DNA of 63,329 bases, the filler included, from Perkinsus chesapeaki ATCC PRA-425 (Eukaryota > Protista > Perkinsozoa): assembly GCA_013115145.1 (NCBI GenBank). It is 8 parts of 8 records of this genome, joined end to end, with 100 filler letters (N's around TTAATTAATTAA, not from the genome) between each part and the next. Parts side by side here need not be neighbours in the genome. Positions count along the whole stretch, not along the records: positions 1 to 21,354 come from JAAPAO010000597.1; positions 21,455 to 27,389 come from JAAPAO010001118.1; positions 27,490 to 49,982 come from JAAPAO010000578.1; positions 50,083 to 54,817 come from JAAPAO010001232.1; positions 54,918 to 58,570 come from JAAPAO010001372.1; positions 58,671 to 60,394 come from JAAPAO010001811.1; positions 60,495 to 61,870 come from JAAPAO010002003.1; 1 more part is not named here. One strand, 5' to 3'. The notes under the pieces were generated by a model, which worked only from the letters and a program-made list of their open reading frames with translations, made no database searches and was not told where the DNA came from. A program made the position numbers and the translations under genes. Positions 9,386 through 61,503 of this stretch are shown here, in pieces. Position 1 is the first letter of the stretch, and each line of letters starts with the position of its first letter.

Positions 9386-11814
9386 ATGTCCACTCCCCCA
9401 ACATTGATAAACGGCGAAAATAGACCTTCAGACGGCGGTAGGGAGCGGAAGAGCAACCTCGTGGCGTCAGATGAGCAACTTAACGTGAGTCGACCGGGCC
9501 TCCAGCTCTAGTGGGTTGAGTCACTCAACTTGACTTATTGTCACTTATTCGACTTAACTGGAATCTTGCCAAAGGGAAGGCATTAAAAATTCTCGGAAGT
9601 GTATGTGGGATTATGAGTGGATAAAGAGGAGCTGCTTGAGATGGTCGGTAAAAGCCTTTGATTTATTCAGAACCCTTTTAAGTTCGATACAAGGCCACGG
9701 TACACGAACGCCTTCCTACCATTGACAGAGTACACCACGTAAGAATGGTCATCATCATCGACTGCTGCTGTTGTTCTTGTTGGGTAAAAGGATGTCTGCT
9801 CTCAGTTACGAGAAGTTCAAAGTGTTCCTCTTTACCGTTACTCTCATTGCACCTATCAGGATTTTCATTATAGTACCCCTTCCTCCCAGCCGGGCCGTCA
9901 TGCTATATAAGCTCGTTTAGGTTTTCCTTCTTATCATTGGTGTGTGTATGGCTAAGGTGGCATCTATAGGCCTACCGCCTATAGATGACGCCATGGAGTT
10001 ACAGCCTCCTATAGACAGCAAGTGGCGAAGATTCATAGTAGGTTGATTGGCGCTCTATTCCCTCGAGTGATGTTGGCAGGTTTTCCTTATGCGTATTGGT
10101 ATGCGATGGATAATGTTCCTTGCCGGCTTTTATTGGGTCAATATAGAGGGTTACTATGACCCTAGGGCCCGTATCATTATAAGCACTCATCATTCAATAT
10201 GGGACACTATCTACCTTATGTAGCATCATCATCATCATAATCCCATCCACACACCATTGCTGCTGTTATTAGGATTTATACTGGATGCTGCGAGGCTGCC
10301 AAGGCAGACCTCTTTAAGGTGCCTATGTTAGGGAGCTTCCTCAGGTCCCTTAACGCCATGCCAATCGATCGGAGATGTAAGAATCCCTCCTCCTCCCCCT
10401 CACTTGTCATTTCGGCATCAGGTCCCGAGGCACGCAGGGCGGCTAAGAGGAATATGAGAGCTCGCGCATTAGACCCCAGATATCCCCCAATGATTGTTTT
10501 CCCTACAGCCACGTGTACGTCATCCTCGCTTTACCTTCTTATCTATTTCGACTCAGGCAACAATAGTCGACAATTATCTGCCTTCAAGGAGGGAGCTTTC
10601 GATTGTGGCGTTCCTGTAAGCCTTGAGTGCCTCCATTTAAAGCGACCATATCCCCGCGGCTCAGATACAGCCAGTTGGTCTGGAGTACCCAGCTCGTCAT
10701 AATGATATATTTGCCCTTAAGAACATGGCGTGGGTTTTCTACTGGAGCTGTTGTCAGTTCGTCAACTTCCACACTGTCCGCTTCTTGCCTGTGTATACCC
10801 CCAGCGAGGCCGAGATAGCCAGTCCTTCTCTCTACGCACAGAATGTGAGTCTCATCCTCCGAGCCTCCGAAATTGGACTGTTGGACAGGTTCGGTCTCTT
10901 ATGTGTACAAAGCTGCAAAGAGAGGCCGTGCCGTATGTGTTTGAGGATGAGCTTCTTCGAATAGTTTGTCGTGATAATTTCATGCGAGTGCATCAGCATC
11001 GTATAATGATGAAGCAAGTCTATGAGGAGTTTGGTATCAGCATGCACTATGTGGACCATTGGGTACGTCTACTGTACAGCGCCGCTCTATACTGTTATTG
11101 TGGTCTTTGCTTGGCAGGTAAAACTATTGCATCGTTTGGACCTCGACGGTGATGGTCTACTGTCGATAAGCGACGTTCAAAAGTCGCTAGTCCTCAGCAG
11201 TGATTCAGATGAGATGAAAATGCTAAAACGGATATGGGCAGTGTTGAAGGTCGATGAGAGCGCCGATCCCAAATACGAGGATATCCCCGCGCCTATGAAC
11301 AAGGCACTGACTAAAGATGGCAGCTGGTGCGGCATGGGGAAGTCAGCCAACTTTCAGTGGTTGTGGTAGGTATGACTATTTCTCTGGCGGCAACCCTCCA
11401 GTGCCCTCGCGTCCATTGGATGAGATACCCGGGGACTTGCTCGCCATTCACGACATAGTGCCAGCGTTCGTGGTTGTCTTCAGCCGGAGAGAAGATGCGG
11501 TTGAAAAGTAGGTACACCATTCGGAAGATAACTGTCATTCGATACGCAGGCGACGTGATGGTCTAGAGTGTCTCTTCCGAGCGGCATTTGAGATGTCCCC
11601 AGAAGACTTCACTACCGAGGAGCTTCAGGATCAGGTAAGGCTCTTGCGATCGCCCAAGGATTGAAGATAAGCTGGCTCCTGATTAGTTGCGACAAAAGCT
11701 TACAAAGTATCTCCCGACCATCGGCACGCCACCGCAAAGGCATGGCTACAGGAGCAGCGACGCCAGCAGCGGAAGAAATACATCTTAGGCGATGATGATT
11801 TGCAGATGGAGTAG
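9386..11814 (+). CDS. LPCAT-like lysophospholipid acyltransferase with EF-hand, paralog 2 (multi-exon)
   Basis: QNPF, THHSIWD, AMPIDRR, FPTAT, FKEGAF and EF-hand DLDGDGLLSISD; exon layout parallels paralog 1. Confidence 0.82.
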
Positions 11815-11879
11815 CATATTCTAGCCCCCCTATTCAGTGATTCATTGCGGTATATTTGTTAAACTGTCTGGTAGAGATG

Positions 11880-12474
11880 AGGTTCACCAACCGACAAGTG
11901 TTGTGTTCAAGTCACGAGTTAATCGCTGCCCTTCGGGAGAGACCACATGAGTTGCGGAATGTGTCCGTGGTTCCTCAGCTACAGCCAACGCTACGCAACT
12001 TTGCATTGAAGGAGGGACACGTAACCTGCCGTCGCACGTTCACGCAAAGTCCACAGCTGGACACCCGTAGACTTTCCCCGCACTTCGCTTCTACGCACAA
12101 GTGGTGCTCCGCGTTCAAGTCGGGGAGGGGGATATTGGTGAGATATCTTCCACAAGTGCCCAGTGTGCTCGCACACTGTAGGACTAATGGCCAAGCCCAA
12201 GATTCCCGCTCGGCGGGCGAAAAATACTTTGTGTCATGTATATTCACATTCGACTCATTCTCTATCTCTATTCTAGTGCGGTATCCGCCACCTCTCCCTT
12301 TTCTTTTACCCACCCACACCCACCCACGGACTCTCTGGTACTGTGGTTCTCTCTGACCGGGTCACCGGCCCACAACGTTATCCTGGACAACTTGTCCACA
12401 GCCCCACGCCCAGCTTTCGGGCTTCGCATCGGCTGCACTCTTCCTAGCGGTAGATCAATAATTATCCCATGCAC
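11880..12474 (-). CDS. Possible small hypothetical protein (spliced)
   Basis: Consecutive minus-strand ORF segments with plausible GT-AG joins; no recognisable family; extent uncertain. Confidence 0.28.
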
Positions 12475-12861
12475 TATTCTATTGATTTGTGTTAGGGCTG
12501 TGTGCTATTAGTCAGATGGGAAGATATTCACCGGAACTGCTAGCGGTTTGAACAACTCATGCGATATGCATTAATCAAGTTGATTGGCTTTAACTTGCCT
12601 GATATCACTTATAAACCAAACAAGTCTGTAAGGCATGATGAAATTACTATTATTAATAATACAATAATGGAAACTACAATAATGGGACTGTTTAGTACAT
12701 GCCGCCGGTCAAAGGCAGACGTTGGCGTTGGTTAATAGTTCTACCAATAACATCACGCTCATCTAGTACTAGAGTGTTCAACGGCGGTCGTAATGATTCA
12801 TCATACGTTTGTCGTATACTCGACGATGGAGACCGATAGGGATCTGAGGAGAATAACAACA

Positions 12862-15800
12862 TCAGTTCGCCTCGACCAGATCGACCTCACCGTCATCAGC
12901 CTTGTGGTCTCCGCGGCATACTGGGCACACAAAACTCGTGCACTCTGGCGAGACATGAGCGCATTTTTGGTGGTACCATTTGTCGCACTTATCGCAAGTG
13001 ATCCAGCTCTCAGTGTCGGTATGCAACGTAGTAGGGACGTTACAGATCTCACACATATCGGTATAGACCTGAGCAAAGAAAGTAAAGGACAGCGAGCAAG
13101 GGACTACGTACTGTCATGAAATGCCGACAGCACTCCACTAGATAGAAGACTCTCATCTGCAAAGTCGATTGGATGTAGTCTTCAACTGGAGGGGCGATCA
13201 CAACATTATCAGCAGCGTGAGGGAGAACCGGCGTGCCCGGTGGGAACTCTGGTGACTCAAAGATATCCAAGCACCGCTGCCCATGGCCGGACCAATACTC
13301 CTGCAATCCAATCATTATTATTATGGACCGTGGAGGTTTCCTACTAGAGTTCGCCTATCCCCAACCCAGGGCCGTGGCCGTGCCTTCTCTGGTTTGAGGT
13401 TGTGCACCAAACACTGGGCCCGCACCCGCCAATCAAATGCTGCCTCTATGGCTGTCACAACTCTGGACTTCAAACGAACGCTCAGAGGGAGGCCATCGAC
13501 CTCCAACAGGACCGCCTGAAATTGTCGTCCGGTATATCACAATGCAGCTTGGTGGTGCTTACCAGCAGGTCATCGATGGTGGTATTCCTAGTGGGCTCTT
13601 TCTCCTGCTCCGCTCCTCCATCAGTGCCATCACTCTTAGAGATCTTAGCTAAATCCAACTCCCAGCTCTCATACTCATGGGCGGCCGACACCAATGGGTT
13701 AGAGCGCGTCGCTGAGAAGAATGAGGGTAGAATGTCTCAGACAGGGTATGCCTTACCGGTCGGGTTGGGCACCAGAACACAGTGCTTATCGAGGACGCTC
13801 CGCACTCTTGACATTGTTTCCCCGATGAGCCATCTAAGCTCTTGGGTCTCCTCCATCTTGAGCCGGACTCTCGAGGAGTAGGCCAGCACTGCCAGGGCTT
13901 CGGACACTAAGCCAGAATGGACATAATAACACCCATGCCGGCTTACTTGTAGACTTTGCCCGCTTCAGTCGCGTCCGGAAATTCACCTTCTCGGACTCTC
14001 GCTGTTCTGCTGCCATTTCGGAAAGTGCCTACATACGTACTCCATCATTCGACATGGCCAATAGTAAGCCTACTCGTCTTTGCTGTCGAATAGCTTCTTC
14101 GATTGGTGCCCGTGTATGAGATACTGGTGGAGCATTCCAAGGCGCCATGTCGAGGATCCTCAAGGATAGAGGCAAATCCTCCACCACAGCCGCCGGCTCG
14201 GGTGACTTCTTGCTTTTCCTGGTGACAGCTGCTGCCTTGCTGCTGAGGGTGCTCGGCAAGAGCGCGGTGTAGAACGGCAACGGGAAGGCATAGTCGGGAG
14301 GCTTATGGTGACCGGCTGGAGGAAGCCTCTCTTGCTTGCTATATCCCTCCAGAGCCTTATCGATCACGTGATCGATATCTGGGTCTACATCTCCATTGCC
14401 AATCTGCTCTTGATAGTCGCATGCTTTAAGGACTTGATTGATTCGGTCCTGATAAGCCTCGGCTTCGGTGACCTCCTTGGATAGTCGCTTCAAGAGATCG
14501 CCGTCACAGGAGAAGTCCATACCTTCCAGCTCCGACAACAGAGGGTTGCTGCCGTCCCCGTCGGGAGGGCTATCATCCAAAGACTAAAACATAATACAGT
14601 CAACCTTTCTCTTAGTGGCATCTCTCGCAGTCGCAGAAATAATAATGTTAAGAACTAGTAATAATACGTTATCGGAAGAGATGTCCGAGAAGTACGAGCA
14701 ATGCTATCTCTTAGCTTCGAACAGCTGCTATATAAACGACGTCCAGGTTGCTGTAATAGAGATTCCTTCCTAGAGGTCTTTCATTTACCACACTCCACCG
14801 CCGCCGCCGCCCCAGACCTACCATAGGGGTCTGCTGCTTGGTAGCAGCAGTCGATGTCGGTGGGGCATGCACGCTCTGACATATATGCCTGGCCTCCTCT
14901 AATGTACAGTTATCCTTCTTAAATGCCTCTCTCAGTCTGCTGTTATCATTCCGTGCTCGAAGCTCAGATGCCAGCCACTTGTCTATTCCAGTCTGTACGT
15001 AAAGGGCCTTTCCCTCAGTCGCCAGCTGGGACAATATCTCTGAGTGGTCCATGGCTTCGCTAGAGTCGGCGCTCTCTGCCACAGTCCGAGCCTGGTGGCT
15101 GGCCTTGATTGCCTCCATTGCCCTTCTTAGGTGCTCCTTAGCTGCCCCTACCTGCGAAGTTAACGAATCAAAATTAAGATGTCAGCATTGAGCACCGACA
15201 TGCTTGTTCAGCGCCACACACTCCTCGCTCTTGTTGATGATCTCCCTAGTAAAGCCAGAGTCATCACCCTCCTCGGGCGGCAGAGTCGCACGAAGTATCT
15301 CCTCAGCAGTCTTCAACATAAGATGCTTCCGCCGAGACCGTCGGCTCTGCAGTAGGGCAAGCCATTGGTCGGCCTCGAAGGTGGCTCGCTGCGTCGCCTC
15401 CGACCAGGAGAACTCGACCGCCAGATGGGTCCGACGGGCAACGTGCTTTCTCAGAGCGGCAAGGGAGAGGTCGCCCACGGGAAGGTGGAGCATCTTATCA
15501 AGGTCACTCTCCCAGTCCTGTAAATCCTGAGCCGCCTTCAACACACCAGAGATGAAGCCAACCTAACAGACTGGTCACCATGGCGGCAGGGGCCAAAAGC
15601 AACCTCGGTACCTGCTCTAGGAAGCCAATGCTGACCAGGCTCATAAGATCCTCATCGGCTTTGATGTCAGTAATGTAGGCATCGACCTCGACACACTGTG
15701 GCTTCTCGGCGTCCGGCAATGGGCTCTCGTTGTCATCCCAGTGGAAGAGGTCCTTGGCTCTTCCTTGCCATTCGGTGAGCCGACTAACCAGCGGTCGGAT

Positions 15801-22318: not shown

Positions 22319-22751
22319 GAAAACGAGCGAGGACAACTCAAACCAAACAACAATGAACACCCTTCACTCCAAGAACAGGATATTGACCGATTGGATTGTA
22401 ATAACGGTACAGTGCAGCTGGGCGGTCATCTCACATACAGCCGTAGCGCTGTACACATCGATATTAAAGTCAACTTGACTTGGTCAAGTTGGAGCGCCAC
22501 AAACGATATGAACGGGGGAGAGCGGACGTCGCTAGACCCTGGAGGCTAGAATGTTGAGGGTCTTTAGAGTGTGGAAAGAGTGTCGTTTACTTCAGTAGTA
22601 CCACTTCTGTGAGCTAGGAGCTCAGAGCCTACACCAAGGTAGAACACAAAGTCCAAGGGATGATAGAAAAAATGCAATATCAAATATGGCTCGGTAGAGC
22701 GCCTATTAGAGCAATGACAGAAACTTTAAGACCATCCGTGGTGTTTCATTA

Positions 22752-23729: not shown

Positions 23730-24335
23730 TTACAAAAACTCGATGCCAGAGAAGCAGGAAACAACCTCGGTAATCGAATGGCCACCGATACCCCTCCAAC
23801 TGAGGTAGGCATTCCACCCAACATCAACGATACAGTCCCAGGTGGGCCTGGCCGCCGGGAGGATCTTCTGGACTACTGTGAAGTTGAATGCATCGGATGG
23901 AGGCCACACGAACCACGAAGCCAGATAGGCTTCGGCCCACTTTGTCTCGGTCGCCTCGCGAGCACGGCTGATAGATTCGCTGAACGGTTGACCAAGTAGG
24001 AGCCGGTGGAACATCGTGGACAGAAACAGAAACGATGGTACAGATATTGGCATGTAAATGAATTGCATAGCCAGCACCTTCCGACTTACCACTCGAAAGG
24101 TAGGCTTCGTTCCGATGTGCTTGTCGAGTGCGTTATAGAAGACAGTCAAAGGCACACCATTGAAAAGTGGACCACACAGCGAGACGGCCGCTATCCTCGC
24201 CTTGTCGATTTTTTCACTTTTCTCGGCTTTCTGCGCGAACCAGTCACTCAGGGCGAAAAACAACAGTGATGAAGCCGAGTTGGCGAGCACCGGTGATCTT
24301 TGGTATACGCGGGCCAAGGCAGCAGCCACCACCAT
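23730..24335 (-). CDS. Mpv17/PMP22 family membrane protein, copy A
   Basis: LANSASSLLFFALSDWFAQ; WFVWPPSDAFNF; WNAYLS. Confidence 0.88.
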   Translation of the reverse strand: MVVAAALARVYQRSPVLANSASSLLFFALSDWFAQKAEKSEKIDKARIAAVSLCGPLFNGVPLTVFYNALDKHIGTKPTFRVVSRKVLAMQFIYMPISVPSFLFLSTMFHRLLLGQPFSESISRAREATETKWAEAYLASWFVWPPSDAFNFTVVQKILPAARPTWDCIVDVGWNAYLSWRGIGGHSITEVVSCFSGIEFL

Positions 24336-24464
24336 TGGCAGAAAAATACTAGGAAAAGCATCGCTCTAGGAAAAGCATCGCTCTAAGGTGTTCTCCCCAA
24401 CTCCTTTGTGAACGCTACACGCCATCAGGGATATTAAACAGTAATTACACATCTGTCATGATGA

Positions 24465-25085
24465 TTATTTAAAAACTTCAGTTAGTGAGTGCCCCCCTAT
24501 ACCTCGCCAACTGAGGTAAGCATTCCATCCTACCATAATCACACCATCCCATGTTGGCCGGGCGCTGGTCATTCGCTTTTGAACGATGGTGAAGTTGAAA
24601 GAGTCGGATAGAGGCCAAACGAACCAAGATGCCCAATAAGCTTCCTTCCACCGAAGCCGTGTCGATTCCCAAGCTTCCGAGCATGCCACACTCGGCCGCT
24701 GTCCCTTGAGGAAGGCGTTCAATGACGATGATAAGAAGATGAAGGCCGGGACAGAGAAAGGCATGTAGATGACTTGCATGAAGATTATCTTACGAGATGC
24801 AACCTTGAGGCTGTGGCCCGATCCAAGGACCCGGTCTAACACTCGGTACAGTTGTGTGAGGCATACACCACTGAGAAGTGGGCCACAGAGAGCGACAGAT
24901 AACACACGGCATTTGTCGGTTTTTCTATCAGTAGTTCCGTTGCTCTCTGCCCGCTGTGCAATGAGATCACTGAGACCGTAGCAAGTGAAGGAAGTCACCG
25001 AGTTAGCCAGCATCGGCGATACAGCGTAGATCTGTTTGATGCTCGAACGGAGACGCGCACCAAGCCGAGGGTACGAAAACGCCAT
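24465..25085 (-). CDS. Mpv17/PMP22 family membrane protein, copy B
   Basis: LANSVTSFTCYGLSDLIAQ; WFVWPLSDSFNF; WNAYLS. Confidence 0.88.
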   Translation of the reverse strand: MAFSYPRLGARLRSSIKQIYAVSPMLANSVTSFTCYGLSDLIAQRAESNGTTDRKTDKCRVLSVALCGPLLSGVCLTQLYRVLDRVLGSGHSLKVASRKIIFMQVIYMPFSVPAFIFLSSSLNAFLKGQRPSVACSEAWESTRLRWKEAYWASWFVWPLSDSFNFTIVQKRMTSARPTWDGVIMVGWNAYLSWRGIGGHSLTEVFK

Positions 25086-39725: not shown

Positions 39726-41034
39726 TCGAAGCGAGGGAAGCAGATTACAAAACAACTGAAGCCCATATGCGTTCCTGATGAACTGTGAACATTGATTTCG
39801 CGATAAAAATAAACCGAACCATTTGTACGGGAGAGCGCGAGTGACGTTACAGGGCAGAGCGAAGAACGAGATTGATTTGTTGGCCCCGAGAGGGCGTCAC
39901 GCCTTGCACACGCGTACGGCATTTGCAAAATCGGCTCGCCCGTTGAAACGCTGCGTGTGCTACTCATCGGCCTGGAGATGACGCAGTGCGGAAGTCATAT
40001 AAGCATTCAATGCTTATAATACATTGGGCCTTAAGGAGGTGGGTACCAAGGGTGTGGAACTACTATGATACCCATTGAGATGTTACGCGAAGGACCTTCT
40101 TAGGGAAAGTTTCACTCGCTAAGTTAATATAAAGTAATTAATAGTCGATGACTACTTCGCTTCACAGTCCCTAAATAGATGGGTCAGGAAATACTGCTAT
40201 CAGAACATGTCTTATACTGCGAAATAAGTCGAGTTAGTTGCGACCACTCTTCCTCAATCGTTGGCCATAAAGACGACCATCCAAGACTGGGGGGCTGCAT
40301 GGATGTCTTCTTTATGCGAACTGTGAGGGGAAATAAAGATACATTGAAACGATACAAGTATTTCACACGGCAAGTGGCGTGTAATCAACTTCATAGATAA
40401 CCGCTTCTTGAGGTGTCGCAGGATCCATTAAACCTGGCAGACCGATCCACTAAGGATTGGTATAATAAAAAGATTTTGCTAAACTTCATAGATTTCTTTG
40501 TTACGCACTGTGAAGGTTTTAAGGTATCTTTCGAACGCACACTAATCAAGCGACATGTGTTCACCGAATCTTGCGTTCTGCCTGAAGAGCAAGATTCAAC
40601 CTCGGATACGCATTTGCATATGGAGCGGTTTCGAAGAGGATCTTGGTCTCATTAAATGCTCGAAGAAGTATTCAAAAGGATTTGCCAGTTCAAATAAATA
40701 TAGCAAATATCTTTCTCTTTTTTAAGAAAAACTGCCTTTCGTTTGAGTGGTTCAATCACAGACTCTGCACTTGTCCTAAAATATGTTATCTCCTCTATAA
40801 CGGTTAGAAGTGGCGCCTCCCGAAAAATGGCTTCACAAGTGTGTATTATAAACTATTATTATAATATAATAATAGTTTAAATTTTAATCTACTTTTGTGG
40901 CAACTTATTTTTTTCTTAAAAATTATTTTCCAATACCCGTATCTTTTCCCTTCTTCGTCGATTGTTTTTACTGAATGTTCTTCGACCCCGAAGCCCCGAA
41001 GTGTTAATCGAACCCAGTTGGTAGTTTCTTTTCA

Positions 41035-44000
41035 ATGAGTTATAAGCCGAAGACGTCACCTGCATTTTTCGGGCAAGCAGGGAAGCTTTCCCGGAAGCAT
41101 GGTTCTGATGTCCAGTTGATTAAATCCCTTGTAAGGTTCCATCTTCGGTGATAAGGCAAAAATAGATTGAAGTTCAAAAAATATAAAATTAATCTATCTT
41201 GATGAAATATCAATATCGACTTATTTTTAAAAGTCCCAAATTTATTCCGTAAAAATTGGATGGAAAATTTTTAGTTTTTTTTAAAAAAAATTTTTTACTT
41301 TCCTTGAATTTCATGTTAACGATGCTGAACTTGCAGTTCTTCAGATTCTTCCGCGGATTCCACTGAAATTTGCGGACTTTTTTCCGATAAATTTTCCGTT
41401 TTCCTCACTTTTGGCGGAAATTTCCCAGATTTTTTGCGTGTCAGGCGACCCCATTGCTGACAGAAACTCCTTGTCTGAAGCGTGACAGGCTTCCGGCATT
41501 CTCGCCGAAGAATTTCAGACGCCAGCTTGAAGCTTGGATACCCCTCATATCGGTTTTGAAAAGATACTCTCGAGGTTACATCAAGAACGACCTTATGGGA
41601 GGGATCACTTTGGGACTGATTACTCTTTCCCAAAGTATCGCACATGCCAACATCGCCCATGTCGGCCTCATCAACGGTCCCTATTCCTGCGTGTGGCCAG
41701 TTTTAGTGTAGGAATCTGGAAAAAACGATTCGCAGAGCAATTTTCAGATACGCGATTTTTGGAACGTCCCCTCACATGTCTGTCGGAACAGGTGCCATGA
41801 TGGCGTTGATGACTGGGGAGCATGTCGCCAAGATTCCCGATTTGGAAATTCGTAGGTTTTCCGCGGGTTCTACGTCGTTGTTATGTATTTTTCCGAAATT
41901 TTCCCCGAAATTTCTCGAAAATTTGGTGTATTTTATGGAGGGGTTTCTGGACTGTTGAGGGTTACTCATCACAAACAGTGTTCATTTTCACACAAAATTT
42001 TCCCCAATTTTCAGGAACCGCTATGGGCTGCCAACTCGCTCTCATCACAGGCTTCGCGATGTGCTTGATGGCTGCCTTGAGGCTTTCATTTTTGGTCCGC
42101 TTCATTTCTAGACCGGCGCTCTCCGGCTTTGTAACAGGTAAAAAATATTTTTTCCGGAATTTTTTCCTGGAAATTCCCTCTCAGGTGCGGCCTTCGTAAT
42201 AGTCGCGTCGCTTATGAAGGATTTTTTCGGGCTTCATCGAGTCGACAAAGGAGTCAATTTTTTCCAGAACATGTTCTACGTCTGTGTCAGCCTTCACACG
42301 GTAGAAGTTTGCGTGCTATCGGCTTCGATTTTTTCTCAGGCCTCCCCGGCAGTTACGTTGCTGAGTGTTCTCACTATTGGGATCATAAACGGGCTGGCGC
42401 GCTATCGGAGTCGACATCGGGCCATCGAGTTTATTGCGGGATTTAAGGAACTCGTGGCAGGTTATATAGGGGAGGGGCGAATGGCGGCAAAATTGTGGGG
42501 GAATTTCCGTGTTTTTTGGGGGAAAAGGTTCAAGTGTGTGACATTGGAAAATGTTATTACAACGCTATTGTTTAATACGGTTTATCGGATGGAAATCGGC
42601 CTTGCTCCTGTGTAGATCATTCGGCAAAGAGTGGGAGTCGTAGAACTGACTCGGACCTCGCTTCCATTCGTTTTGCATAGTCTGTATCATAAGACGCATT
42701 CTGGTATCGTTTACCTTCCTTGATCTATTAAGATTGATGAATCGTTCAGTGGGGGGAAGCCGGTTGGTGTCGTCAGTTTTCGTTGCAAGGGGATGCTTCA
42801 TCACTTTTACCTGTTCTTCAGTCACATAATATCTTCAAGCTTGCCGATCACTGAATTAGCGAAACCTGACCACATCCTTGCTTGGCGACCCATCGTGGAT
42901 CGTAACGTACTCTCACAGAAAAATGCTTTTTCCTCGCTGTAGAGACATCTTCTTGTTGCCCGGGAAAGCATTTCCGCGCAGACAGATAAATCTTGTTTGG
43001 GTGCTGAGCTTTGAAGCTTCAGAGTCGAGTGGAATTTAAAGAAACTCACTGGCCGACTCGGACAGAGAGTTTCAGATCGTTGTCATGTAAACATGCGTCC
43101 TCCTCGATAAAAACCAGTATTGTGGTGCTTCGCTCCAATGAAATGAAGAAATTACTGTGGTGTGCATGATATTCGATCATAAGGCTCCCACTGCCGCATG
43201 CCGGACTTCGAGGGGCGTCCGTAGTTTTCGTTATGTATTCAGTCACTAAGGCTTCAGATTTTCGCTAGTGGATTTCATGCCGTTGCCTGTTTTGAATTCG
43301 TTGGTTTTTGTACACTCGTTTTTTGGTGAAGAAGTTTATATGTAATGAAATGAGCTTCGCAAAGTGGCATCGCTGCGGTGTAGGGACTTTATAAGATGAC
43401 TTTTCGAGATTTGCATCCTTTGAATTAGACCGTCGGTTCTCGGTATATCAGCCCGGAATGTCCTTGCACGGGATAGGGACATTCACTTTCGGCCCTGGGA
43501 GTCCCACGTCTGGAGTGGGAAATTCCCACTTCGCGCGATAGTGGCAAGTGGCGGGTCACCGTAGAGATACGTAAGAGGTAATCGGCCCAGTGTCAGTAGC
43601 TTAAATAGTATGATATTACTGAGCTTAAGTAGCTTTATGCTACTAGTCAGAGTAGTCTACTCTTTTATGAGGCTTGTAATAAAGAACTCAACTCTCTTCT
43701 ACTGTTAACGCCTCCCTAGGAGGCCGAATGACGAAGATACATCCCAGTAGCTCATCTCCCCTTGGCAAGTCTTCTCGGTGTAATCTTTTCCGGAAATAAT
43801 GAGGCCCAATTTTCCCATAATTTTCACGTATTTCAGTCATCGTCGCAACGGCATTATGTTTCTCGATGTCGCTGGTTTACCGTCAGAAGCTCCTGGCCAG
43901 CTTTGGTGATGATTCAGGTTGGGAAGACTTTATACCTCATGTAGGTCTTTGCGGGGAAAATCCGGAATCGCGCAGGCTTTTGTGGACTTCGAAGGCTATA

Positions 44001-47000: not shown

Positions 47001-47843
47001 CTTATATGTGGCGTCAATAGTACCGCAGCGCTAGTGCGTTCCCGATTCTGAAGTGTAGGTTATTTCTTCAGGGACTCGAGGAACTCGCGATAGAGTTTCA
47101 TGGCAGAGGAGTGGCTCTGTGGTTTGCTGGGTCGCATGGATCCGTTCGAAGGTTGCTTGAAAATGTTTTGGTAGAGCGCGAAATAATTGAACAGAAAGGT
47201 GAGTCTTCTCGCCCTGGTATTGTAAGTTCTTTCGTCTTCTTTTCCTCGATTTTTACGAATCGATCACGTGATCGATTGGGATTTCTCACGACATTGTCGT
47301 CTTCAGATTTGGTGCAGCAAGTCGAAGCCGTTGTGCAGCAGGCGCTGAGGCAAATAAGTCTTCCGGTCACCACACATGTGAAAAACTCCGACAAAACCGA
47401 CAGAAAGAAACTTCTTTCAGGCGGCGGTGGTGATTCAGCGTTGGTGGAGAAACAGACGGCAGCAACGTCTTCAGGAGGAAGGTGACAGTGGTGGCAACAG
47501 ATATATAAATGTAAGAAAGTTCATACAACTTGCATTTTCTAAAACGGCAATTTGGCCGGGGGTATGAGCAGACGAGATCGGGGGCGAGATCTCTTGCCGC
47601 CTTTCCCGAAATTTTCAGGCTTTGCTGAAGGTTTTTGTGACTGGTAGAATTCAGGTCGGTTGGGCTATTGATGACGATACGATTGAGGAGATGTATCGAA
47701 ATCGATCGCTTAAAGTTGTTCCATCAACACCGGATCTCGTGGCAGATCGAAGCCCGTCCAGGCGAGGCGGGCCGCCGGAGATTCGATATGAAAGGCGACC
47801 TGGTTATGTCTCATCGATGCGAAGGAGCAATTCTATTGTATAA
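41035..47843 (+). CDS. SulP/SLC26 anion transporter with STAS domain and C-terminal IQ-like motif, multi-exon (start approximate)
   Basis: DLMGGITLGLITLSQSIAHANIA, FGTSPHMSVG, ISRPALSGFVTG, GSVFGAFPVQGGLSRT; STAS PGLLVFGINGPLLFVN and GVPFIDATA. Confidence 0.9.
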
Positions 47844-48423: not shown

Positions 48424-49590
48424 TCATTCTTTGACCTCATATGGATTCACCAAATAAGCGTGACCAGGGTGCATTCTCTTAATATTAAGATTCTTCACGA
48501 ACTCGCTCAGAGGCTCCCCCTTGAACGAGCATCGGTATATAGCAGCACACAATGGTACTTGTTTCTTGATCGGAGCGTCACCGATGGCATCAACGATTTC
48601 CAGCAAAGTGAGAGTGCCTTGGAGCTTCTGGCCACCAAGCAGTTCACTTTCGATGTCTTCCCAAGACTTCTTTCCACCAGCCTTAGCGAACGCCTCCGCG
48701 CAACGACGGTTTCGACCACCGAAACAAGTAGCAATTAAATCACCAACGCCGCAGCTTTCGAAAAAAGTTTGGTCGGGAACAGCCGGATAGATGTACTTGA
48801 TGATTTTACGCATCTCTTCAAGACCAATACGTAACACTGCAGCTTTGGAGTTCGTACCGAGACCGAGACCGTCGCAGAAGCCAGCACCAATAGCTATGAT
48901 GTTCTTGACCGCGCCGCACATCTCAACGCCTTGAACGTCTTCAACGTGATTCACACTGAACATGTCGCTATCGAAAAGGTTCTGCAAAACCACCGCTGAC
49001 TTGCTGTCGTGGCATCCGAGCGTCGCCTCGCAAAACTGGTCTTTGGCAACTTCGATGGCAAGATTCCCACCCATGAGCACCGCGACCGTCCTCAACTGTG
49101 GCAGAGCCTCGCGGATGATGTCACTGCAAAGAACGATCTTGCTCGAGCCGTCCTTCATAATCTCACGGTCAAAACCGCCCTTAATGAGAGACACCGCAAT
49201 CGCATCTTCACGAACACAATTTTTGATCTGCTCCAGGACCTTCGGCAAGAACTGATGGGGCAGCACGAAAATAAGAATATCGGCACCGGTGACGGCCTCC
49301 TTGAGATCTGGCACCGCGACGATATTTTCCGGTAAAGCGATGCCTGGCAGATACTTCACATTCTCGTGCTTGGTGTTGATAATCGTGACAAGACTCTCCT
49401 TTTTGCCTTCGAGCTCGACTTGCTCGTCAAATACCCACATACGAATCTCGTCGTCGAAATCGTCGTTCTCCAAAGCCCTGATCGCCACGAGGCGCGAGAC
49501 AGTTGAACCCCAGTTGCCGCTGCCAATCACGGTAACCCTGCGGGGGTACCTGGTAGGGTCGGGAGAGATGGACCTTTTCTCGGTGAACAT
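48424..49590 (-). CDS. GPD1: Glycerol-3-phosphate dehydrogenase (NAD+), single exon
   Basis: VIGSGNWGS, HENVKYLPG, SLIKG, GAVKNIIA, GVGDLIATCFGGRNRR, GQKLQG. Confidence 0.97.
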   Translation of the reverse strand: MFTEKRSISPDPTRYPRRVTVIGSGNWGSTVSRLVAIRALENDDFDDEIRMWVFDEQVELEGKKESLVTIINTKHENVKYLPGIALPENIVAVPDLKEAVTGADILIFVLPHQFLPKVLEQIKNCVREDAIAVSLIKGGFDREIMKDGSSKIVLCSDIIREALPQLRTVAVLMGGNLAIEVAKDQFCEATLGCHDSKSAVVLQNLFDSDMFSVNHVEDVQGVEMCGAVKNIIAIGAGFCDGLGLGTNSKAAVLRIGLEEMRKIIKYIYPAVPDQTFFESCGVGDLIATCFGGRNRRCAEAFAKAGGKKSWEDIESELLGGQKLQGTLTLLEIVDAIGDAPIKKQVPLCAAIYRCSFKGEPLSEFVKNLNIKRMHPGHAYLVNPYEVKE

Positions 49591-49982
49591 TTTTCGAGAT
49601 GAAATCTGAAAGAGACTTTCGAATAGGAACGCTAGAATGAAGGTGGCACACCGCGCAGCACACAAAAACTGTCCCCTTTCAAGGAGGCACTAAAATACAG
49701 CTCCTCCTGGTGCTGTGAGAATTGAAGAGACTTCAGTGGACTTAAGAGCAAGAATCATTAACAATTTTCGGGCATGAGCGGAACTAAGCAATGAATTTTC
49801 AGAGTCTCTGAGGCAGAGATGGAGAAAGCCTACTTCCCGATGGCGCGCGTACACAAGGCTTGCACGCATGCGCAAAAGGATCGAGGAATCATTCAACCTA
49901 AGAGGATGGAAGTTTGATAGGAAATATGTTACTAGTGATACGGAGGAGGAGATATAATAGAAAGGAGTTTGATAGGAAATAT

Positions 49983-50082: not shown

Positions 50083-50120
50083 CTCTACTTCATTAGTCTT
50101 CTTTTCAAACCTCAACCGCC

Positions 50121-51174
50121 ATGCGTTCAGTTAGGGGTGACAAAGCAACACATACGTGCGTTATCTTTATTCCAAAATCTTTTATGACGATTCAGATATT
50201 TTCGATTATACGGAGGCTTACATCAGCGCGTATTCTATTACCGCTTGCCTCATTGCTCTGTGGGTCGATTTATGAGCCGGAGTTATCTCCACCGGTTTTT
50301 ATTCATTAATTTTTTAGTAAGCAAACAAGCTGCTGGTGCCCTCCTGCGTAAGCAGCTGTGATTATGGACGATTTCATCTCAGACAAGTTGCTTGGAACAG
50401 ATTCGTATAGTCTCAGATATAATCGTACTCCCATTTTGTGTGAGTGCGTTTTGTCGCAGCGCACGTCCGCCCTTGCTCGTCTGGACAACACGCGTGTTTC
50501 TGCTCACTTTGATTCCTCCATGGTCCGAAGTGAACGGGCTATAGTGAGGCCCGGAATATATACAGGGTGTTCCAATTTGTTATGCAAATCATTATTGAGT
50601 TTATCATATTTGATAATTCATTTATAAATGCAGGTAAATCAGACTATCACAACAGGAAGCTGCAGGTGTCAGTTTCCGTCGATGAACGGGTGGAAGTATT
50701 AGCACCTCAGCTGGATTTATTCATGCAATGGGAACTTTGGTGAGTTGACAGTATCGTGAGGAAAGCGGAATACCCATTTGTGGCCATTTGTCAGTTACAA
50801 ATTGTTAGGGGCGCTCCATATGTGGAAGAGAAGATTCCAAAAAGGTTCATTATTGACGATTATCCAAGTTTTCCACATCGTGGCATGCTTATCGATACCG
50901 GAAGGCATTATCTTCCAATGGACATTGTTAAGGAGAATTTATATGTCATGGCTTTTAACAAGGTATTTATAAACTCAATTAATATTTGATTAACCTATCT
51001 CAGATGAATGTTCTTCATTGGCGTTTAACTGATGATATCAGTTTTTCATTAGACCTCCCACAATATACAAATTTACAAAAAGGGAATCCATCTCCTGTTA
51101 CATATGTTTCATTTTATTGCTTTATCTGTTGAAGGTACTCGAAAGAAGAAATTATTGATTGGCATTGGAAGTAA
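50121..51174 (+). pseudogene. Second GH20 beta-hexosaminidase, 5' half, apparently truncated (start approximate)
   Basis: IDDYPSFPHRGMLIDTGRHY; MNVLHWRLTD (Arg where His is usual); YSKEEI then TAA at 51172; no catalytic barrel exons found downstream. Confidence 0.72.
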
Positions 51175-51188
51175 TACTTCCGGAGTAT
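51167..51188. mobile_element. Hairpin-type excision footprint, inferred TSD GGAAGTAT
   Basis: GGAAGTA + ATACTTCC + GGAGTAT (1 mismatch). Confidence 0.7.
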
Positions 51189-51326
51189 CGCTGTACAGCC
51201 ATATACGTATCGCCTGATCAACAGGAGAGCAGATTAGCTCGAAACCTTCGAGTCGAAAGTGCGGTCATAAACGTCATTATCGATAGATAGTAAAGCCCAG
51301 ATAGTTAATCTGATAATATTATTATA

Positions 51327-51580
51327 TCACTTATGATCATGGGACACAAAGGTCCCGCGGGATCCAGTAACGTGACGGAAGTTAGTCACGCCACGGCCCA
51401 AAGAGTTATCCAGACCATACTCGCGGCAGGCCACACAATAAGCGGTAGCAGTTAACTCGTCAAATCTAAGCCGTACTTCTGCAGAGATAATGGGGGAATC
51501 GCGGGGGGTAACCACCCTTTCGTACACCAGTGGACTCTGTGTCGGATTCGCGATGATGGATCTGATGAAACGGTCACCTT
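51327..51580 (-). mobile_element. Relic TTF/BED-type zinc finger, possibly from a hAT transposase
   Basis: LRFDELTATAYCVACREY...GRGVTNFRHV...SHDH resembles the WLxYxxxxDxAFCxxCxxF...GFxNWK...H pattern. Confidence 0.4.
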
Positions 51581-52229
51581 GAGAGTCAGTGAATTAAAGA
51601 ATCATCTATTACTTTATGCTTTCCTGAGCTCTCCGAGCTAGTAGCCATTGATAGCCTCATTGAGACGTGTTTCTGAAGCTTACCCATGGTTACCCAGGAA
51701 TGTGGTTTCGACCTTTCTTGAGCTCGCTTCCTCCACGCCCCAGTGCTGTTAGACGACGAACTGCTGGCTGCTCGGAAAAACCGGTCTGCACTGGCTTGCA
51801 AAGTCGGCAACTCCTTGTCGTGTCGCTTCTGAATCAGAAGTTCTGATTCTCCTCTCGCTAACGCTTCTTTGCCCAATGGGCAATGCCCATCCCCCGGTTG
51901 ACATGATCAGGAGAATGATCAAGGTTACGATTAGTCGCATCAACTGCGGCAGTTGAACTGCCTCAATGAGAAGTGATATGCTTCCTTGAAGGGAGTCGCT
52001 TCCATGTAGATGAACCAAGTGAACGCAATTAACGCACACGTACAACGGTCGCGAGTCCCGCTCGCCAATAATGGTGGGTACCTTCCGGGGCTGCCCGGCC
52101 ATCGCCAGGTAACGCCGGGTAACGCCGGGTGAAGCCCTGGGCCGCCCGGCGGTTGCCGGGTTGCCGGGTGGGCTGCGGCGCCACGAATCCATCGTGTCGG
52201 GTCTTAGTGAACCACGCCTTATGAGCACG

Positions 52230-53507
52230 GAAAAGACCGCCTCTCAGATTTCGTCAGGCAGGAGAATCGTCGCACATTGCTCCGCCTCTTGTTCCACGAG
52301 TCTTTCCATCTGATCGTATCAGGCTGATACCCTTCTGCACTTCCCAATGGTACTGTGAGGGGCCGCCAGTGGCGGCCCGCCACATGTACTTTGGAAGTAC
52401 TACTGATTGACTTCTTTGTTAATGTTCTCGTTAGGCTCAGACCTTTCGCTTTCGTTTCTCTATTCATCCCTGCTTCCTTACCAGATTGATTACCCTGCTT
52501 TCGTACCGCAGCATAAATATACATATCCTTTGCCTTCCGCGATTGAACAACAAGTGCTGTCACAAAGAACTCCCCCACATCCAATTCCAAAAAGTCGGCA
52601 AGGCTGAAGATTATTCGTTGGTGACGTAGCGTGCATGCGAAGAAAACTTCCGTTTTCTGACACCTGCAGCTTTTCCACGTGATATGACTCATATCAGTAC
52701 TCATATCATATGAGTACTGGTTTTACTAGTAATATGGTCCTAACATGCTTATACTTTCATTACACTTTTGTATGCGGCTTGAAGAATCAGAGTGGTACAG
52801 CTGCAGTTGAGGCGGTTGATAAGGTTTGCGATATGGTTGATACTATGCATAGGCTTAGAAGTGATGGTGGATGTCACTTTACCTGCAAAGCCTTCAAGAC
52901 GATGTGTGAACGCCAAGGAATTCAGCATATGGTCGTGAATCGTTATAGCCCTTTCCAGAACGGTATTGCTAAGCGTGCCGTGGCCGGCTTGAAGAAGACC
53001 TTTCGCCTTTTCCCGGATGTGGTCAAACAAGAAGGTAAAGGTTCTCAATGGTTTTCATTGTTGGCTGGTGCTACACGTCGACTGAATGATAGACCTTTCC
53101 TTGGTCACGTTCCCTTCGAGGTATTCTATGGACGACCTCGTGAAGAGCAACTACGCTACGCTGATACGGATAAGATAGAAGCACCCCCTTCGCTACAAGA
53201 CCTTCAACATGATAGAGCCGCAGCTAACGAAGATTTCGATCTGCATTAGCAGCATAGACTTCCTGTTCGATCCTATCAACCCAGAAGACTAACTTTGAAG
53301 CCGGGGCGACTGGTGGTCATTTATCGCTCTACTACCAAGCCTGGACTGGTTATACTGGCGGTTCTGTGAAAAAAGTAGTTTATCAGGTTTTGTATTGGTG
53401 TTGATGTTCATCTCCGCCCAGCTAAAGATCGGTTAGAGAAGAAATAATCGGAAGGTCCTAATGATTTCGTTGAGCATGTGAAGAATCTTCGCCCTTACTA
53501 TGCTTGA
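52230..53507 (+). mobile_element. Decayed Ty3/Gypsy-type pol (integrase) of an LTR retrotransposon
   Basis: RLRSDGGCHF (D), PFQNGIAKR (catalytic E replaced by K), PFEVFYGRP, HVKNLRPY; frameshifts; 5' limit approximate. Confidence 0.88.
52680..52719. mobile_element. Double-hairpin excision footprint, inferred TSD GATATGAG
   Basis: TGATATGA-C-TCATATCA overlaps CAGTACTCATAT-C-ATATGAGTACTG. Confidence 0.88.
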
Positions 53508-53531
53508 ATTGGTCGAAGAGGGGGTCGGATG

Positions 53532-53795
53532 TGATGCCTGCACAATTATTGTCCCCTTGATCTATTTTACCTAAGCTATAGCGTGCGCTGTAGCTTGGTG
53601 TCGATTCCCAATTGTGGGTGAGAATCACTTCGATTTTTATTTCCCTTTTTCCATGTCCGATTTATTGAGTACAGTTCCAAGAGGGCGAAACAGCAGATGA
53701 CCCGTTTAACCAACTGGACTAACGCGAACCTTCAAGTTTGACTTTCTTCGTCGGATTATGCTTGAAAACGTCGTATTAAAGTCTACCAAACATCA
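53532..53795 (+). mobile_element. Candidate 3' LTR (TGATG...CATCA) after a polypurine tract at 53515-53524
   Basis: GAAGAGGGGG follows the integrase stop; 5-bp inverted ends; ATTAAA near the 3' end. Confidence 0.62.
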
Positions 53796-53925
53796 TGCGC
53801 TTCGCTCCGCATATTCCACTCAATCGGGTAATCAACATTCGGGTTATTTCAAGGTTACTTAACCTATCTATTATCTCATACCAGGTTTCTAATAGGCCCA
53901 GCATGTTCTGTGAATGTAACGACAA

Positions 53926-54162
53926 TGGACGAATGGCTATTGGACGAAAAGGTCATGTACGAAACGCGCATTGTCAGCATATCTTTGCGTGAAGCAACCA
54001 TGAACGAAACAATCGTGGACGAAACCTTACCTGGACGAAATAAATGAGTACGAAACGAGCGCAATCACAGTGGACGAAACGATCCTGGATAAACTGCGAT
54101 TTGGGCGAAAAAATCTTGGACGGAACATGCCATGCCATGGACGAAACAGTAATGGACGAATC
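53926..54162 (+). repeat. 15-bp-period array with conserved TGGACGAAAC core and variable 5-6 bp spacers
   Basis: Cores at 53926, 53941, 53956, 54001, 54016, 54032, 54047, 54071, 54086, 54102, 54117, 54138 and 54153. Confidence 0.9.
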
Positions 54163-54817
54163 GCGGTACACCCGACCGAAGGTACTGGACTATGCCCAAA
54201 GCGCTCCTGAGACCTTCTATAGTCTCTGGCAAGAGCAAGCAGGACTGAAGCTTCTGCACATTCTCATCGGTCGTGCGCCAGCCGGTGGCTGACATGTGCA
54301 TATCGCACATAGTGACAGTAGTTGCAACATCCTGGGTCTTATGCAAGGGCAAGTTGATGCCAATCCGCAAGAGGTAATTGCGGACATTAGTTAAACGAAG
54401 ACGGCAGTGCTCCTCGTTCACGCCCCAGAGCATAATGAAATCAAAATAGCAGCAGACACCGCAACCAGCCAGATCTGGCTTGCCGATAAGAATAGAGAGA
54501 GCTAGCTGAAAGTAGTTCTGCCAATAGGCTGGAGGGCACTTGAGGCCCTGTGGTAACATCTCAAAATGATGAAACTCGTCAACGCCAGTAGTACTGGCCC
54601 AGTACGGATCCCCATGATTCGGCCTCCGTTCTTTCCCACATCTTCATCTATATGGACCTGGTAGAATGCATCCTTGCAGCTATGAATGTCTATGACAGCC
54701 AGGTATGAACCGGAGGGAATGTTGGGGACACAGGCAGTAGCTTTATGTTGGAGTTGTTACCACCACGAGGAAGTTCCAGCCTGGCATTGAGATTCCGAAA
54801 GTCACATAGAAGTCGAA
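54163..54817 (-). mobile_element. Decayed Ty3/Gypsy-type reverse transcriptase
   Basis: RLLCDFRNLN, KDAFYQV, MLPQGL, CYFDFI (YxDD degraded), LRSALGIVQY; frameshifts. Confidence 0.9.
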
Positions 54818-58670: not shown

Positions 58671-59515
58671 ATCGTGATGCTTGTCAACTTGGTTGTCTTG
58701 AACACGGTGTGCTGGGGTTATTGGTGGTTGCTCGGTTTCTGGTAAAAGACAGCATGTTTCAGCTTTCTTTAGCGGAAGTACGATGAAGCTCGATGATATA
58801 TCAATCTGGTACTATTAAGGTATGATATTTAATTACTGTTTATTGTTTTGCCGACTGTGTATCGTTCCTGGTTGTAGAAATCGTTCGTTCTCAGTTTGGT
58901 TATCTACGCTCCTGGTTTAACCTCGCTACGTAGTGTACGATGCTATTTTAAGTATTGATTCAATGGTTTCACTGTATCGGTACAATCGCTATTGGTTTCT
59001 GTACGAACAACCTCATTTTGTTGTCGCTCATGCGCAACTACTATGTAAAGAAGTAACCCTAAAGTTCTTCTAAACGTTCACTCGAATCGTTATAGGCGCT
59101 AGAAATGCCTCTACTTCGATCGTAACTTTCATCTGTTTCATCTTACAAGTGTTTTTCCGAGGGAGTGAGCTTTTGTTGTTGAGTTGTGTAAACAGTGGAG
59201 ATTGTCGAAGTTAATGATGCTGGGTTGTGCTTTCCTTGGAAATGCTTGTGACAGTAATGGTGTGACGTAGATCCAGTGGATCTGACATCGTATGCTTTAA
59301 AGCATCTACGTCGCAACCGCAGCTGACATTTTTTGGCTGAGGGTCAAACGTGAGGTTCGGTGGCCGGTTGGTTAGTGTTATTGGCTCTCTTGCGGCAAGT
59401 CGCGTGTTCGTTCCGTGGCTGGTCAATTTTTACAATTTCCTTCGTTAAATTAAGGCGAGCGAGGTAATTTCAAGGCGTGAGGTGACCTCGCTGAGATCTT
59501 GTAGTGGTGACACGC

Positions 59516-60394: not shown

Positions 60395-60494
60395 NNNNNN
60401 NNNNNNNNNNNNNNNNNNNNNNNNNNNNNNNNNNNNNNTTAATTAATTAANNNNNNNNNNNNNNNNNNNNNNNNNNNNNNNNNNNNNNNNNNNN
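60395..60494. other. Assembly linker
   Basis: TTAATTAATTAA at 60439-60450. Confidence 0.98.
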
Positions 60495-60644
60495 ATGTAG
60501 CCGTTGCTTCCTAACCTTAATGCTCCTCGCCTCTTAGAGGCTTTACCGAGAAGGAAGCGCGTCTTGACAACACTTTTGTTCTTCATAACGGCATGTTAGT
60601 CGTCAAGAAAAACGTGTAAAACAGCGTTTCTGCTATAATTCACG

Positions 60645-60666
60645 TTAGCTCAGAGCAAATTGCTCT
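60645..60666. mobile_element. Hairpin-type excision footprint, inferred TSD TTTGCTCT
   Basis: TTAGCTC (1 mismatch) + AGAGCAAA + TTGCTCT. Confidence 0.68.
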
Positions 60667-60877
60667 ACGACCAAATACATACTCAACTTTTCTCATTTTT
60701 CTCTGCCAACAACATACATACTGGGCTAGCTGTGCTACCAACTCATCCACTACCGACTCGGACAGTACTATCAATTAGTCTACTTTTACTCCCGCTCATA
60801 TTCCTCGCGCGCATTTCGCGCTATAATGTAACTTGTATAATGCTCGATGTAACTCGCTTGGACAGCGCTATTATATA

Positions 60878-60995
60878 CGAAAACAGCAGAGGATTAAAGA
60901 ACACTTGGAAATTCCAAGTGCTCTTTAATCCTCTGCCGTTTCCGAGTTCGCCGCGATTATGTATTCCAAGTTGGAATACATAATCGCGGCGAACT
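60878..60995. mobile_element. Twin long palindromes forming a double-hairpin excision footprint, inferred TSD CTTGGAAT
   Basis: Arms 60886-60910 and 60912-60936 (24/25, extending to 30/33); arms 60945-60969 and 60971-60995 (25/25). Confidence 0.92.
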
Positions 60996-61099
60996 TTGGG
61001 TAAAATAGCAGTCGTGGTTACATAAGAGCACATGCATTTTTTGATAAGAGCGTAGCTGCTCTTTTGACAGCACGGTATATTTTATTAGCCTATCTGCCG

Positions 61100-61137
61100 T
61101 ATCTAGGCTAGATAATCTAGATCAGCTAGACTAGCTG
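61100..61137. mobile_element. Two nested excision footprints, inferred TSDs TATCTAGC and TCTAGCTG
   Basis: TATCTAG + GCTAGATA + ATCTAG + AT + CAGCTAGA + CTAGCTG. Confidence 0.72.
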
Positions 61138-61446
61138 GAGCAGTATAGGCCCATCTACATCGCTGAAATGGTAGTTCGTGTCCGTGCTACGGACGCGGAA
61201 CTCCGTGGTTTCCACTGGACGCCGTCCAGGAAAGGGAGAGGGGCAGAGGGCTGCTACAACGTCGTCGGCAGTGGAGTCGTAACTAACCTGGGACGTGCCT
61301 GACCGGTTGGTCGCCCCACTCGATGAAGAGCTGCCCACAGTCTGTGGGCCACAGAGGAGTTTACCGATGAGGAACTAGATAAGCTGTTCGAGCTATATAA
61401 AATTGGAGAAAATTGGTCAACCAATGCCGACGTAGCACACTATCAG
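61131..61446 (+). pseudogene. Disrupted exon of an unknown gene
   Basis: Removing a TAAC duplication (~61280) and the 14-bp footprint gives one frame LEQYRPIYIAEM...DEELPTEEFTDEELDKLFELY...HYQ ending at a GT. Confidence 0.62.
61334..61355. mobile_element. Perfect 22-bp excision footprint, inferred TSD CCCACAGA
   Basis: CCCACAG + TCTGTGGG + CCACAGA. Confidence 0.9.
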
Positions 61447-61466
61447 GTACCGCATCCACTGGCATC

Positions 61467-61503
61467 ATTGTGCGCTGAGCCTCAGCGCACAATCACGCTG
61501 AGG
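61467..61503. mobile_element. One-sided excision footprint, TSD CGCTGAGG
   Basis: ATTGTGCGCTGAG-C-CTCAGCGCACAAT, then CA, then an intact CGCTGAGG. Confidence 0.82.

Follow-up and report, generated by a model that had tools for sequence, protein, structure and literature searches.

Features of the analysed window

This analysis concerns a class of short palindromic insertions in Perkinsus chesapeaki ATCC PRA-425 (assembly GCA_013115145.1), which are likely excision scars of a cut-and-paste transposon. The window, i.e., the whole stretch of 63,329 nucleotides that was analysed, consists of eight contigs joined via N44-TTAATTAATTAA-N44 linkers and is not a single locus. Its genes are intron-rich, and retroelement relics are located in the small contigs. 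Sites that read T[1-7]+revcomp(T)+T[2-8], with T being an 8-base word that differs between sites, recur in the window; this 22-base form corresponds to a gain of 14 bases (+14), and two further sites follow the same 8-base rule with longer palindromic (P) nucleotides. Both kinds of site are termed scars in the following. The total of 22 comprises 20 sites of the 22-base form with at most two mismatches and the two long-P scars; ten sites with three mismatches were dropped, and neither the palindrome at 40849 nor the poly-T/A palindromes at 41275 contribute to the count. Scars and palindromes are listed without strand, with the supporting analysis in brackets.

51826..51847: perfect +14 scar, T=CTTCTGAT (22-mer and pair scans)
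51869..51890: perfect +14 scar, T=TTGCCCAT (22-mer and pair scans)
51941..51962: perfect +14 scar, T=CAACTGCC (22-mer and pair scans)
52362..52383: perfect +14 scar, T=GCCGCCAC (22-mer and pair scans)
54584..54605: perfect +14 scar, T=GCCAGTAC, within the reverse transcriptase relic (22-mer scan, empty paralogue)
61334..61355: perfect +14 scar, T=CCCACAGA (22-mer and pair scans)
12377..12398: +14 scar, one mismatch, intergenic (three-copy score)
22467..22488: +14 scar, one mismatch, upstream of a GH20 gene (three-copy score)
43642..43663: +14 scar, one mismatch, within a sulfate transporter gene, where it lies in a long stretch without coding sequence that is probably an intron
51167..51188: +14 scar, one mismatch (three-copy score)
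51238..51259: +14 scar, one mismatch (three-copy score)
60645..60666: +14 scar, one mismatch (three-copy score)
61100..61137: pair of +14 scars that overlap each other, at 61100-61121 and 61116-61137 (three-copy score)
9515..9536: probable decayed +14 scar, two mismatches (6 sites of this class against 1.25 expected)
49798..49819: probable decayed +14 scar, two mismatches, upstream of the glycerol-3-phosphate dehydrogenase (GPD) gene
52309..52330: probable decayed +14 scar, two mismatches (three-copy score)
59477..59498: probable decayed +14 scar, two mismatches (three-copy score)
61208..61229: probable decayed +14 scar, two mismatches (three-copy score)
61574..61595: probable decayed +14 scar, two mismatches (three-copy score)
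52681..52714: long-P scar (+26), T=GATATGAG, at the start of the integrase relic (exact pair)
60879..60995: long-P scar (+66), T=CTTGGAAT, core 60904-60977 (exact pair, empty paralogue)
61467..61503: long-P scar on one side only, with an arm of 13; the whole CGCTGAGG is preserved on the right, with complex repeats next to it
39998..40018: odd-centred palindrome, arm 10, without exact partner, possible one-sided scar
40849..40879: odd palindrome of A+T-only type, arm 15, without convincing partner, outside the class
52683..53246, plus strand: integrase (rve) relic, beside the +26 scar
54174..54817, minus strand: reverse transcriptase relic (RVT_1), host of the 54584 scar

Enrichment of one-base centres and 8-base words

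Palindromes in which a single central base is flanked by perfect arms of at least 7 bases occur 40 times in the window compared to about 4.7 times in order-3 Markov sequences, which served as controls throughout; for arms of exactly 7 bases, the numbers are 28 and 3.7 (Poisson 8e-16). Even-centred palindromes (spacer 0) with arms of at least 7 bases number 9 against about 4.4 in the controls, and among all spacers between 0 and 8, a peak of this kind is confined to the one-base centre.

The 22-base form was searched for in its general version, T[1..k-1]+revcomp(T)+T[2..k], with word lengths k from 4 to 12. At k=8 there are six perfect matches in the window (51826, 51869, 51941, 52362, 54584, 61334) and none in the controls, whereas there is no perfect match at k=5, 6, 7, 9, 10, 11, or 12; at k=4, ten perfect matches were counted in the window sequence alone. 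When the agreement of the three copies was scored, k=8 yielded 6, 8, 6, and 10 sites with 0, 1, 2, and 3 mismatches, compared to 0, 0, 1.25, and 4.75 in four controls. The same score at k=7 gave 1 and 5 sites with one and two mismatches (0.25 and 5.75 in controls), and k=9 gave no site with up to two mismatches. The first-pass annotation of this DNA had set in advance that a peak should appear at k=8 and that even-centred palindromes should not be equally enriched; k=8 is the only peak among word lengths 5 to 12, and the excess lies with the odd centres. It had reported one perfect 22-base form, at 61334, together with copies at 51167 and 60645 with one mismatch each and a possible one at 9515, all of which are as described.

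Pairs of hairpin centres at distances of up to 100 bases give a concordant picture. The exact rule is obeyed by eight pairs at k=8, compared to none in eight controls, with centre distances of 7 (six pairs), 19, and 59; two pairs occur at k=6 (control 0.25) and none at k=5, 7, or 9-12. In each of these exact pairs, the central base of both palindromes is the complement of the base that an inserted element would have as its neighbour. A centre distance of 7 occurs 8 times (1.1 expected). Short footprints of the Ac/Ds type, with centre distances of 0-6, show no enrichment (0-4 per distance compared to 0.7-1.5), so that the +14 form dominates the visible scars.

The longer palindromes conform in part to what had been claimed for them. 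Of six odd-centred palindromes listed with arms of at least 10 bases, five are perfect (39998, 40849, 52695, 60945, 61467), and that at 60886 is perfect over no more than 9 bases per arm (30 with two mismatches). The 8-base rule ascribed to them holds with an exact partner only for 52695, 60886, and 60945 and with one mismatch for 61467; no convincing partner exists for 39998 and 40849. The retention of long P-nucleotides is borne out by the two long-P scars, both of which obey the 8-base rule exactly: the +26 scar has arms of 8 and 12 bases overlapping by two bases (CA), and the +66 scar has a left arm of about 32 bases with three mismatches and a perfect right arm of 25 bases. All three left-arm mismatches (60879-60943) are T against C in one direction, for which a collapse in the assembly or a subsequent conversion of this flank could be responsible. 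In addition, an identical even palindrome of 18 bases with a CACGTG core is found on two different contigs (14358-14377 and 47258-47277); both copies can be read as Arg-Ser-Arg-Asp-Arg and may be a coding chance.

Distribution and decay of the scars

Nine scars lie in 50083-54817, seven in 60495-61870, and six are spread across the remaining 56 kb; 16 of the 22 are thus found in two small contigs. Density is about 0.35 per kb in the window and reaches 5 per kb in one contig. None of the 22 overlaps recognised coding sequence, which amounts to 14.5 kb or 23% of the window (Pfam matches plus long open reading frames (ORFs), with an incomplete exon list).

The interrupted 22-base form that the first-pass annotation had seen at 61100 has to be redrawn as two overlapping forms, at 61100 and 61116, which share the substituted base 61121. 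The target of the second scar falls within the right-hand word copy belonging to the first, and the single substitution accounts for both mismatches; an order of events can be inferred for this nested pair. Together with the gradient from 0 to 2 mismatches, the nested pair indicates that the events were spread over time.

Further observations concern the surroundings of the scars. The exon run of a second GH20 (hexosaminidase) copy (50570-51170) ends shortly before the scar-rich stretch. One contig of the comparison data introduced below bridges 51831 to 52139, omitting 307 bases with three scars (short side 44 bases), and the contig with the integrase relic (52342-53722) has a depth of 76.9 compared to about 135 in its neighbours, i.e., about half, and possibly represents one haplotype only. 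At 61135-61450, exon-like text continues, with changes of frame, through the 61208 and 61334 scars and is possibly a decayed gene; it has no Pfam or protein match, and a protein search with a frame from this scar-dense contig gave no relative.

Empty sites in paralogous copies

The contigs available for comparison came from a single public run (X1) and were compared over 6.1 kb (50083-54817 and 60495-61870). As this run is possibly the origin of the window itself, it provides no independent proof that the scars exist; its paralogous copies are nevertheless a valid comparison. No RNA run containing the DNA of the window was found among the runs listed.

On 50083-54817, the scars at 51167-52714 are carried by X1 contigs without differences. 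A diverged, paralogous copy of the reverse transcriptase relic with a higher depth (358) lacks exactly 14 bases at 54585, and a diverged paralogous contig of 6 kb jumps from 60904 to 60971, omitting exactly 66 bases (60905-60970). At both empty sites, the bases on the two sides of the gap together give one copy of the predicted 8-mer. The insertion is absent at two of two scars with a listed diverged paralogue; no such paralogue is among the matches listed for the other scars. Since the paralogues lack exactly 14 and 66 bases, these scars represent insertions at a word present once, and this applies to the short and the long class, in agreement with the origin by insertion that had been proposed at first pass. 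The frameshifting effect then ascribed to +14 scars is visible in the reverse transcriptase relic, where the motif DAFYQV on one side of the 54584 scar is not in the frame of the motif LPQG on the other.

Proposed mechanism of scar formation

The palindromes are best explained as insertions on single 8-base words that are likely excision scars of a cut-and-paste transposon, which creates 8-base target-site duplications (TSDs) and hairpins on the host DNA and is most likely of the hAT type; the probability of this explanation is put at roughly 0.8. It proceeds from the 7/inverted 8/7 geometry, the strict word length of 8, and the absence of two scars from paralogous copies, which are direct observations. 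Two copies of the 8-mer are needed before fold-back because the geometry demands them, and insertion with subsequent gap filling supplies both.

According to the proposed sequence of reactions, insertion would duplicate the 8-mer, and excision would nick one base into each flank, each of which would close as a hairpin with one unpaired tip base. A host nuclease would then open each hairpin at least 8 bases from the tip, resulting in long 3' tails. The last 8 bases of both tails would be exact complements representing the inverted target, so that annealing and fill-in would lead to a net gain of 14 bases. Annealing via the six inner bases instead, a competing overlap, would restore the site without a trace, and such excisions would not be recorded as scars. 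Tails joining beyond the target would produce the longer scars, with two shared bases in the +26 scar and little or none in the +66 scar. As +14 shifts the reading frame, scars would persist mainly outside working exons. A hairpin cut far from its tip fits Mre11-type processing better than Artemis.

The idea that Perkinsus has lost classical end joining and hence relies on annealing is not supported: P. marinus is scored with Ku70, Ku80, Lig4, MRE11, and RAD50 (PMC6635534 Table S1), a table that has no Artemis column and whose row refers to P. marinus and not to the present species. The accessible text of the CRISPR paper PMC8062965 contains nothing on the end-joining question.

Comparison with known excision systems

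The footprints of Ac/Ds contain palindromes centred on the complement of the element-adjacent base, which arise via hairpin formation and end joining (PMC5873905; PMC1978519). In yeast, arms of up to 20 nt occur, and microhomology was used in 85-100% of events in yeast and Arabidopsis, whereas Ds in Candida albicans leaves short footprints with a longest P stretch of 3 nt (PMC5873905). The scars resemble Ac/Ds events in S. cerevisiae, Arabidopsis, and C. albicans with respect to the 8-bp duplication, odd-centred palindromes, P-nucleotides, and microhomology joining. They differ in that one Ac/Ds site gives rise to mixed, often short footprints, while here unrelated sites show one +14 outcome via the whole inverted duplication, arms reach about 32 bases, and short forms are not enriched. 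Hermes, a hAT element, likewise creates 8-bp duplications, with the target pattern nTnnnnAn (PMC10512250), and flank hairpins (cited in PMC5499845 and PMC1978519); in the window, the corresponding target bias is weak, and neither a Hermes-like transposase nor a Hermes-like end was seen. Muta1 of Aedes aegypti, a Mutator-like element (MULE) of the Phantom group, also forms flank hairpins, and its terminal motif and subterminal repeats are similar to those at 53925-54173 (see below), but its duplications comprise 8 or 9 bp and its excision in yeast is mostly precise, with over 90% of events (PMC5499845, PMC5225508).

P additions from opened hairpins are known outside these systems, too: reportedly, Ascot-1 of Ascobolus immersus leaves non-random footprints with such additions at a single locus, unlike the situation here, and the short P additions in V(D)J coding joints belong to a programmed somatic event, again unlike the present scars.

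Candidates for the source element

A hAT element is somewhat favoured as the source; the remainder beyond hAT and MULE falls on other or domesticated cutters. In the 16 best target words, T at position 2 or A at position 7 occurs in 15 of 32 positions compared to 8.4 expected (p=0.0095, one of four positions tested). T4/A5 occurs in 2 of 32 positions; the central TA is therefore avoided and the words are not Buster-like. Target preferences are nTnnnnAn for Hermes and nnnTAnnn for Buster (PMC10512250), with none for Ac; the bias thus leans towards the Hermes pattern and away from Buster.

A candidate MULE end adjoins the reverse transcriptase relic:

53925..54173, minus strand: end of a high-copy foldback element, candidate MULE, with the other end outside the window

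It terminates in GGGTGTACCG, which matches the Muta1 terminal motif (taken from PMC5499845) at 8 of 10 positions, and has 13 subterminal repeats of the TTCGTCCA type. Its depth rises to 1881 compared to about 135, i.e., about 14 times single-copy depth, with loose ends at 54174. At this position, where the Muta1-like end adjoins, another contig continues the reverse transcriptase relic with a different sequence. The foldback end had 0 matches in metagenome contigs.

Two transposons known from P. marinus were considered in addition. Dada, which creates duplications of 6-7 bases at tRNA genes and small RNA genes (PMC3706591), is ruled out as source by the scar length of 8 at unrelated words. Merlin elements create 8-9 bp duplications, and the Merlin ORFs of P. 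marinus are without recognisable ends, terminal inverted repeats (TIRs), or TSDs (PMC8101967); this paper does not mention hairpins or footprints in its accessible part, and Merlin is unsupported rather than excluded as source. Perkinsus is not mentioned in the main text of the MULE survey PMC6446971.

Weighing of the explanations

Several points weigh against excision of a hAT-type transposon as the origin of the scars. No filled site, i.e., an element at a scar, is listed for any scar in the X1 contigs covering 6.1 kb, and the evidence from empty sites consists of two contigs of one run that is possibly the source of the window. No transposase was found when 38 long ORFs and 362 shorter frames were compared with Pfam (of 708 frames of at least 45 aa in the window, gene-filled stretches excepted), and a search for TIRs flanked by duplications of 8 or 9 bp gave four weak candidates, none of them convincing, which were rejected. 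The one element end found in the window resembles that of a MULE rather than a hAT element, and is a candidate source only. The target bias is weak and derived from 16 words only, 11 of which deviate from nTnnnnAn at one or both positions. The probability for the avoidance of coding sequence (P=0.003) overstates independence, as the scars are clustered. Furthermore, repair here differs from that in most tested hosts, since Ds footprints in Candida are short and centre distances of 0-6 are not enriched.

The foldback end brings a variant within the same explanation into play, in which identical chemistry is carried out on a MULE of the Muta1/Phantom foldback type. Its terminal motif, subterminal repeats, and copy number favour this variant, as do the flank hairpins and 8- or 9-bp duplications of Muta1 (PMC5499845). 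It is nonetheless rather unlikely: the window contains no 9- or 10-base scars, yet Aedes MULE families make both 8- and 9-bp duplications and Muta1 shows little target preference (PMC5225508), and its largely precise excision in yeast does not fit either. The dense scars without an element at any of them would suit a domesticated or hit-and-run transposase without a resident family, by which short pieces are inserted and removed while filled sites are almost never fixed. This is improbable, as the lack of elements carries little weight in a small window with short contigs, which break at elements, and ordinary DNA transposons are present in P. marinus (Dada and Merlin relics). Replication template switching without any transposon, copying forward, inverted, and forward again, yields the same order of pieces, and the clustering of scars in repeats is in its favour. 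It predicts varied lengths and offsets, whereas the scars have one length and two fixed one-base offsets, and even the long scars keep the 8-base rule, which makes it very improbable. Chance or an assembly or amplification artefact can practically be dismissed: X1, in which the scars occur in identical form, is possibly the run from which the assembly was made, and the long palindrome at 40849 is low in complexity, but 14 sites are perfect or have one mismatch compared to none in controls, scar-bearing contigs have depths of 77-339 without differences, and the scars are partly decayed by mutation and keep clear of coding sequence. Excision of an 8-base TSD transposon, most likely of the hAT type, is thus retained as the best explanation.

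Other genes and repeats in the window

Two tandem, intronless copies of a uridine phosphorylase gene (1-352 and 1039-1956) are 99% identical over 300 bases. Among the proteins listed for the product of 1039-1956, those from Perkinsus olseni, P. chesapeaki, and P. marinus have 67-70% identity and the others do not exceed 55%, besides one match of 96% from the same organism. Judged by this one protein, the host belongs with Perkinsus but is probably distinct from these three species. The named relatives of the product outside Perkinsus belong mostly to Peregrinibacteria and Gracilibacteria (about 50%), and a horizontal gain of the gene is possible. The GPD gene (48424-49591) is also intronless; its relatives have identities of 43-55%, with dinoflagellate-type best matches at about 50-55%, and no match named Perkinsus is among the best 120 of the protein search. 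Mpv17/PMP22 paralogues are arranged in tandem at 23730-25085, 711 bases apart. Tandem arrays of 25-base (34517-34866) and 32-base units (34912-35297) are apparently intronic, and 25-base units like those of the former array also occur at 27952-28087. An open frame of more than 429 aa at 61971-63257 is truncated by the contig end and has no Pfam match; by impression only, it resembles the gag of a retroelement.

Significance of the scars for Perkinsus

The chemistry involved has long been established; the scar class itself is real and unusually uniform. Neither a genome-wide natural record of such scars nor any report from Perkinsus was found in the literature searched, which does not show their absence from print. 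The designation as a genome-wide mutagen, which was used at first pass, is an extrapolation from 63 kb. A wider proposal is put forward tentatively and is itself unlikely: perkinsids would share a genus-wide route in which, despite the presence of Ku and ligase IV, hairpins are opened far from the tip and the whole inverted target is annealed, so that a large share of excisions ends as legible +14 scars. In its boldest form, a hit-and-run or domesticated cutter would have scarred several species with almost no filled sites.

Usual excision footprints are too short or too mixed to be recognised in finished genomes, whereas a fixed scar of 22 bases can be found by its pattern alone. The pattern would give the count, target profile, and relative age of past transposon visits, including those at element-free sites, and the excision rate, which is normally hidden, becomes measurable in a wild genome. 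The scars also inform on hairpin opening in an early-branching alveolate, and they continually supply frameshifts as well as presence/absence markers by which isolates differ.

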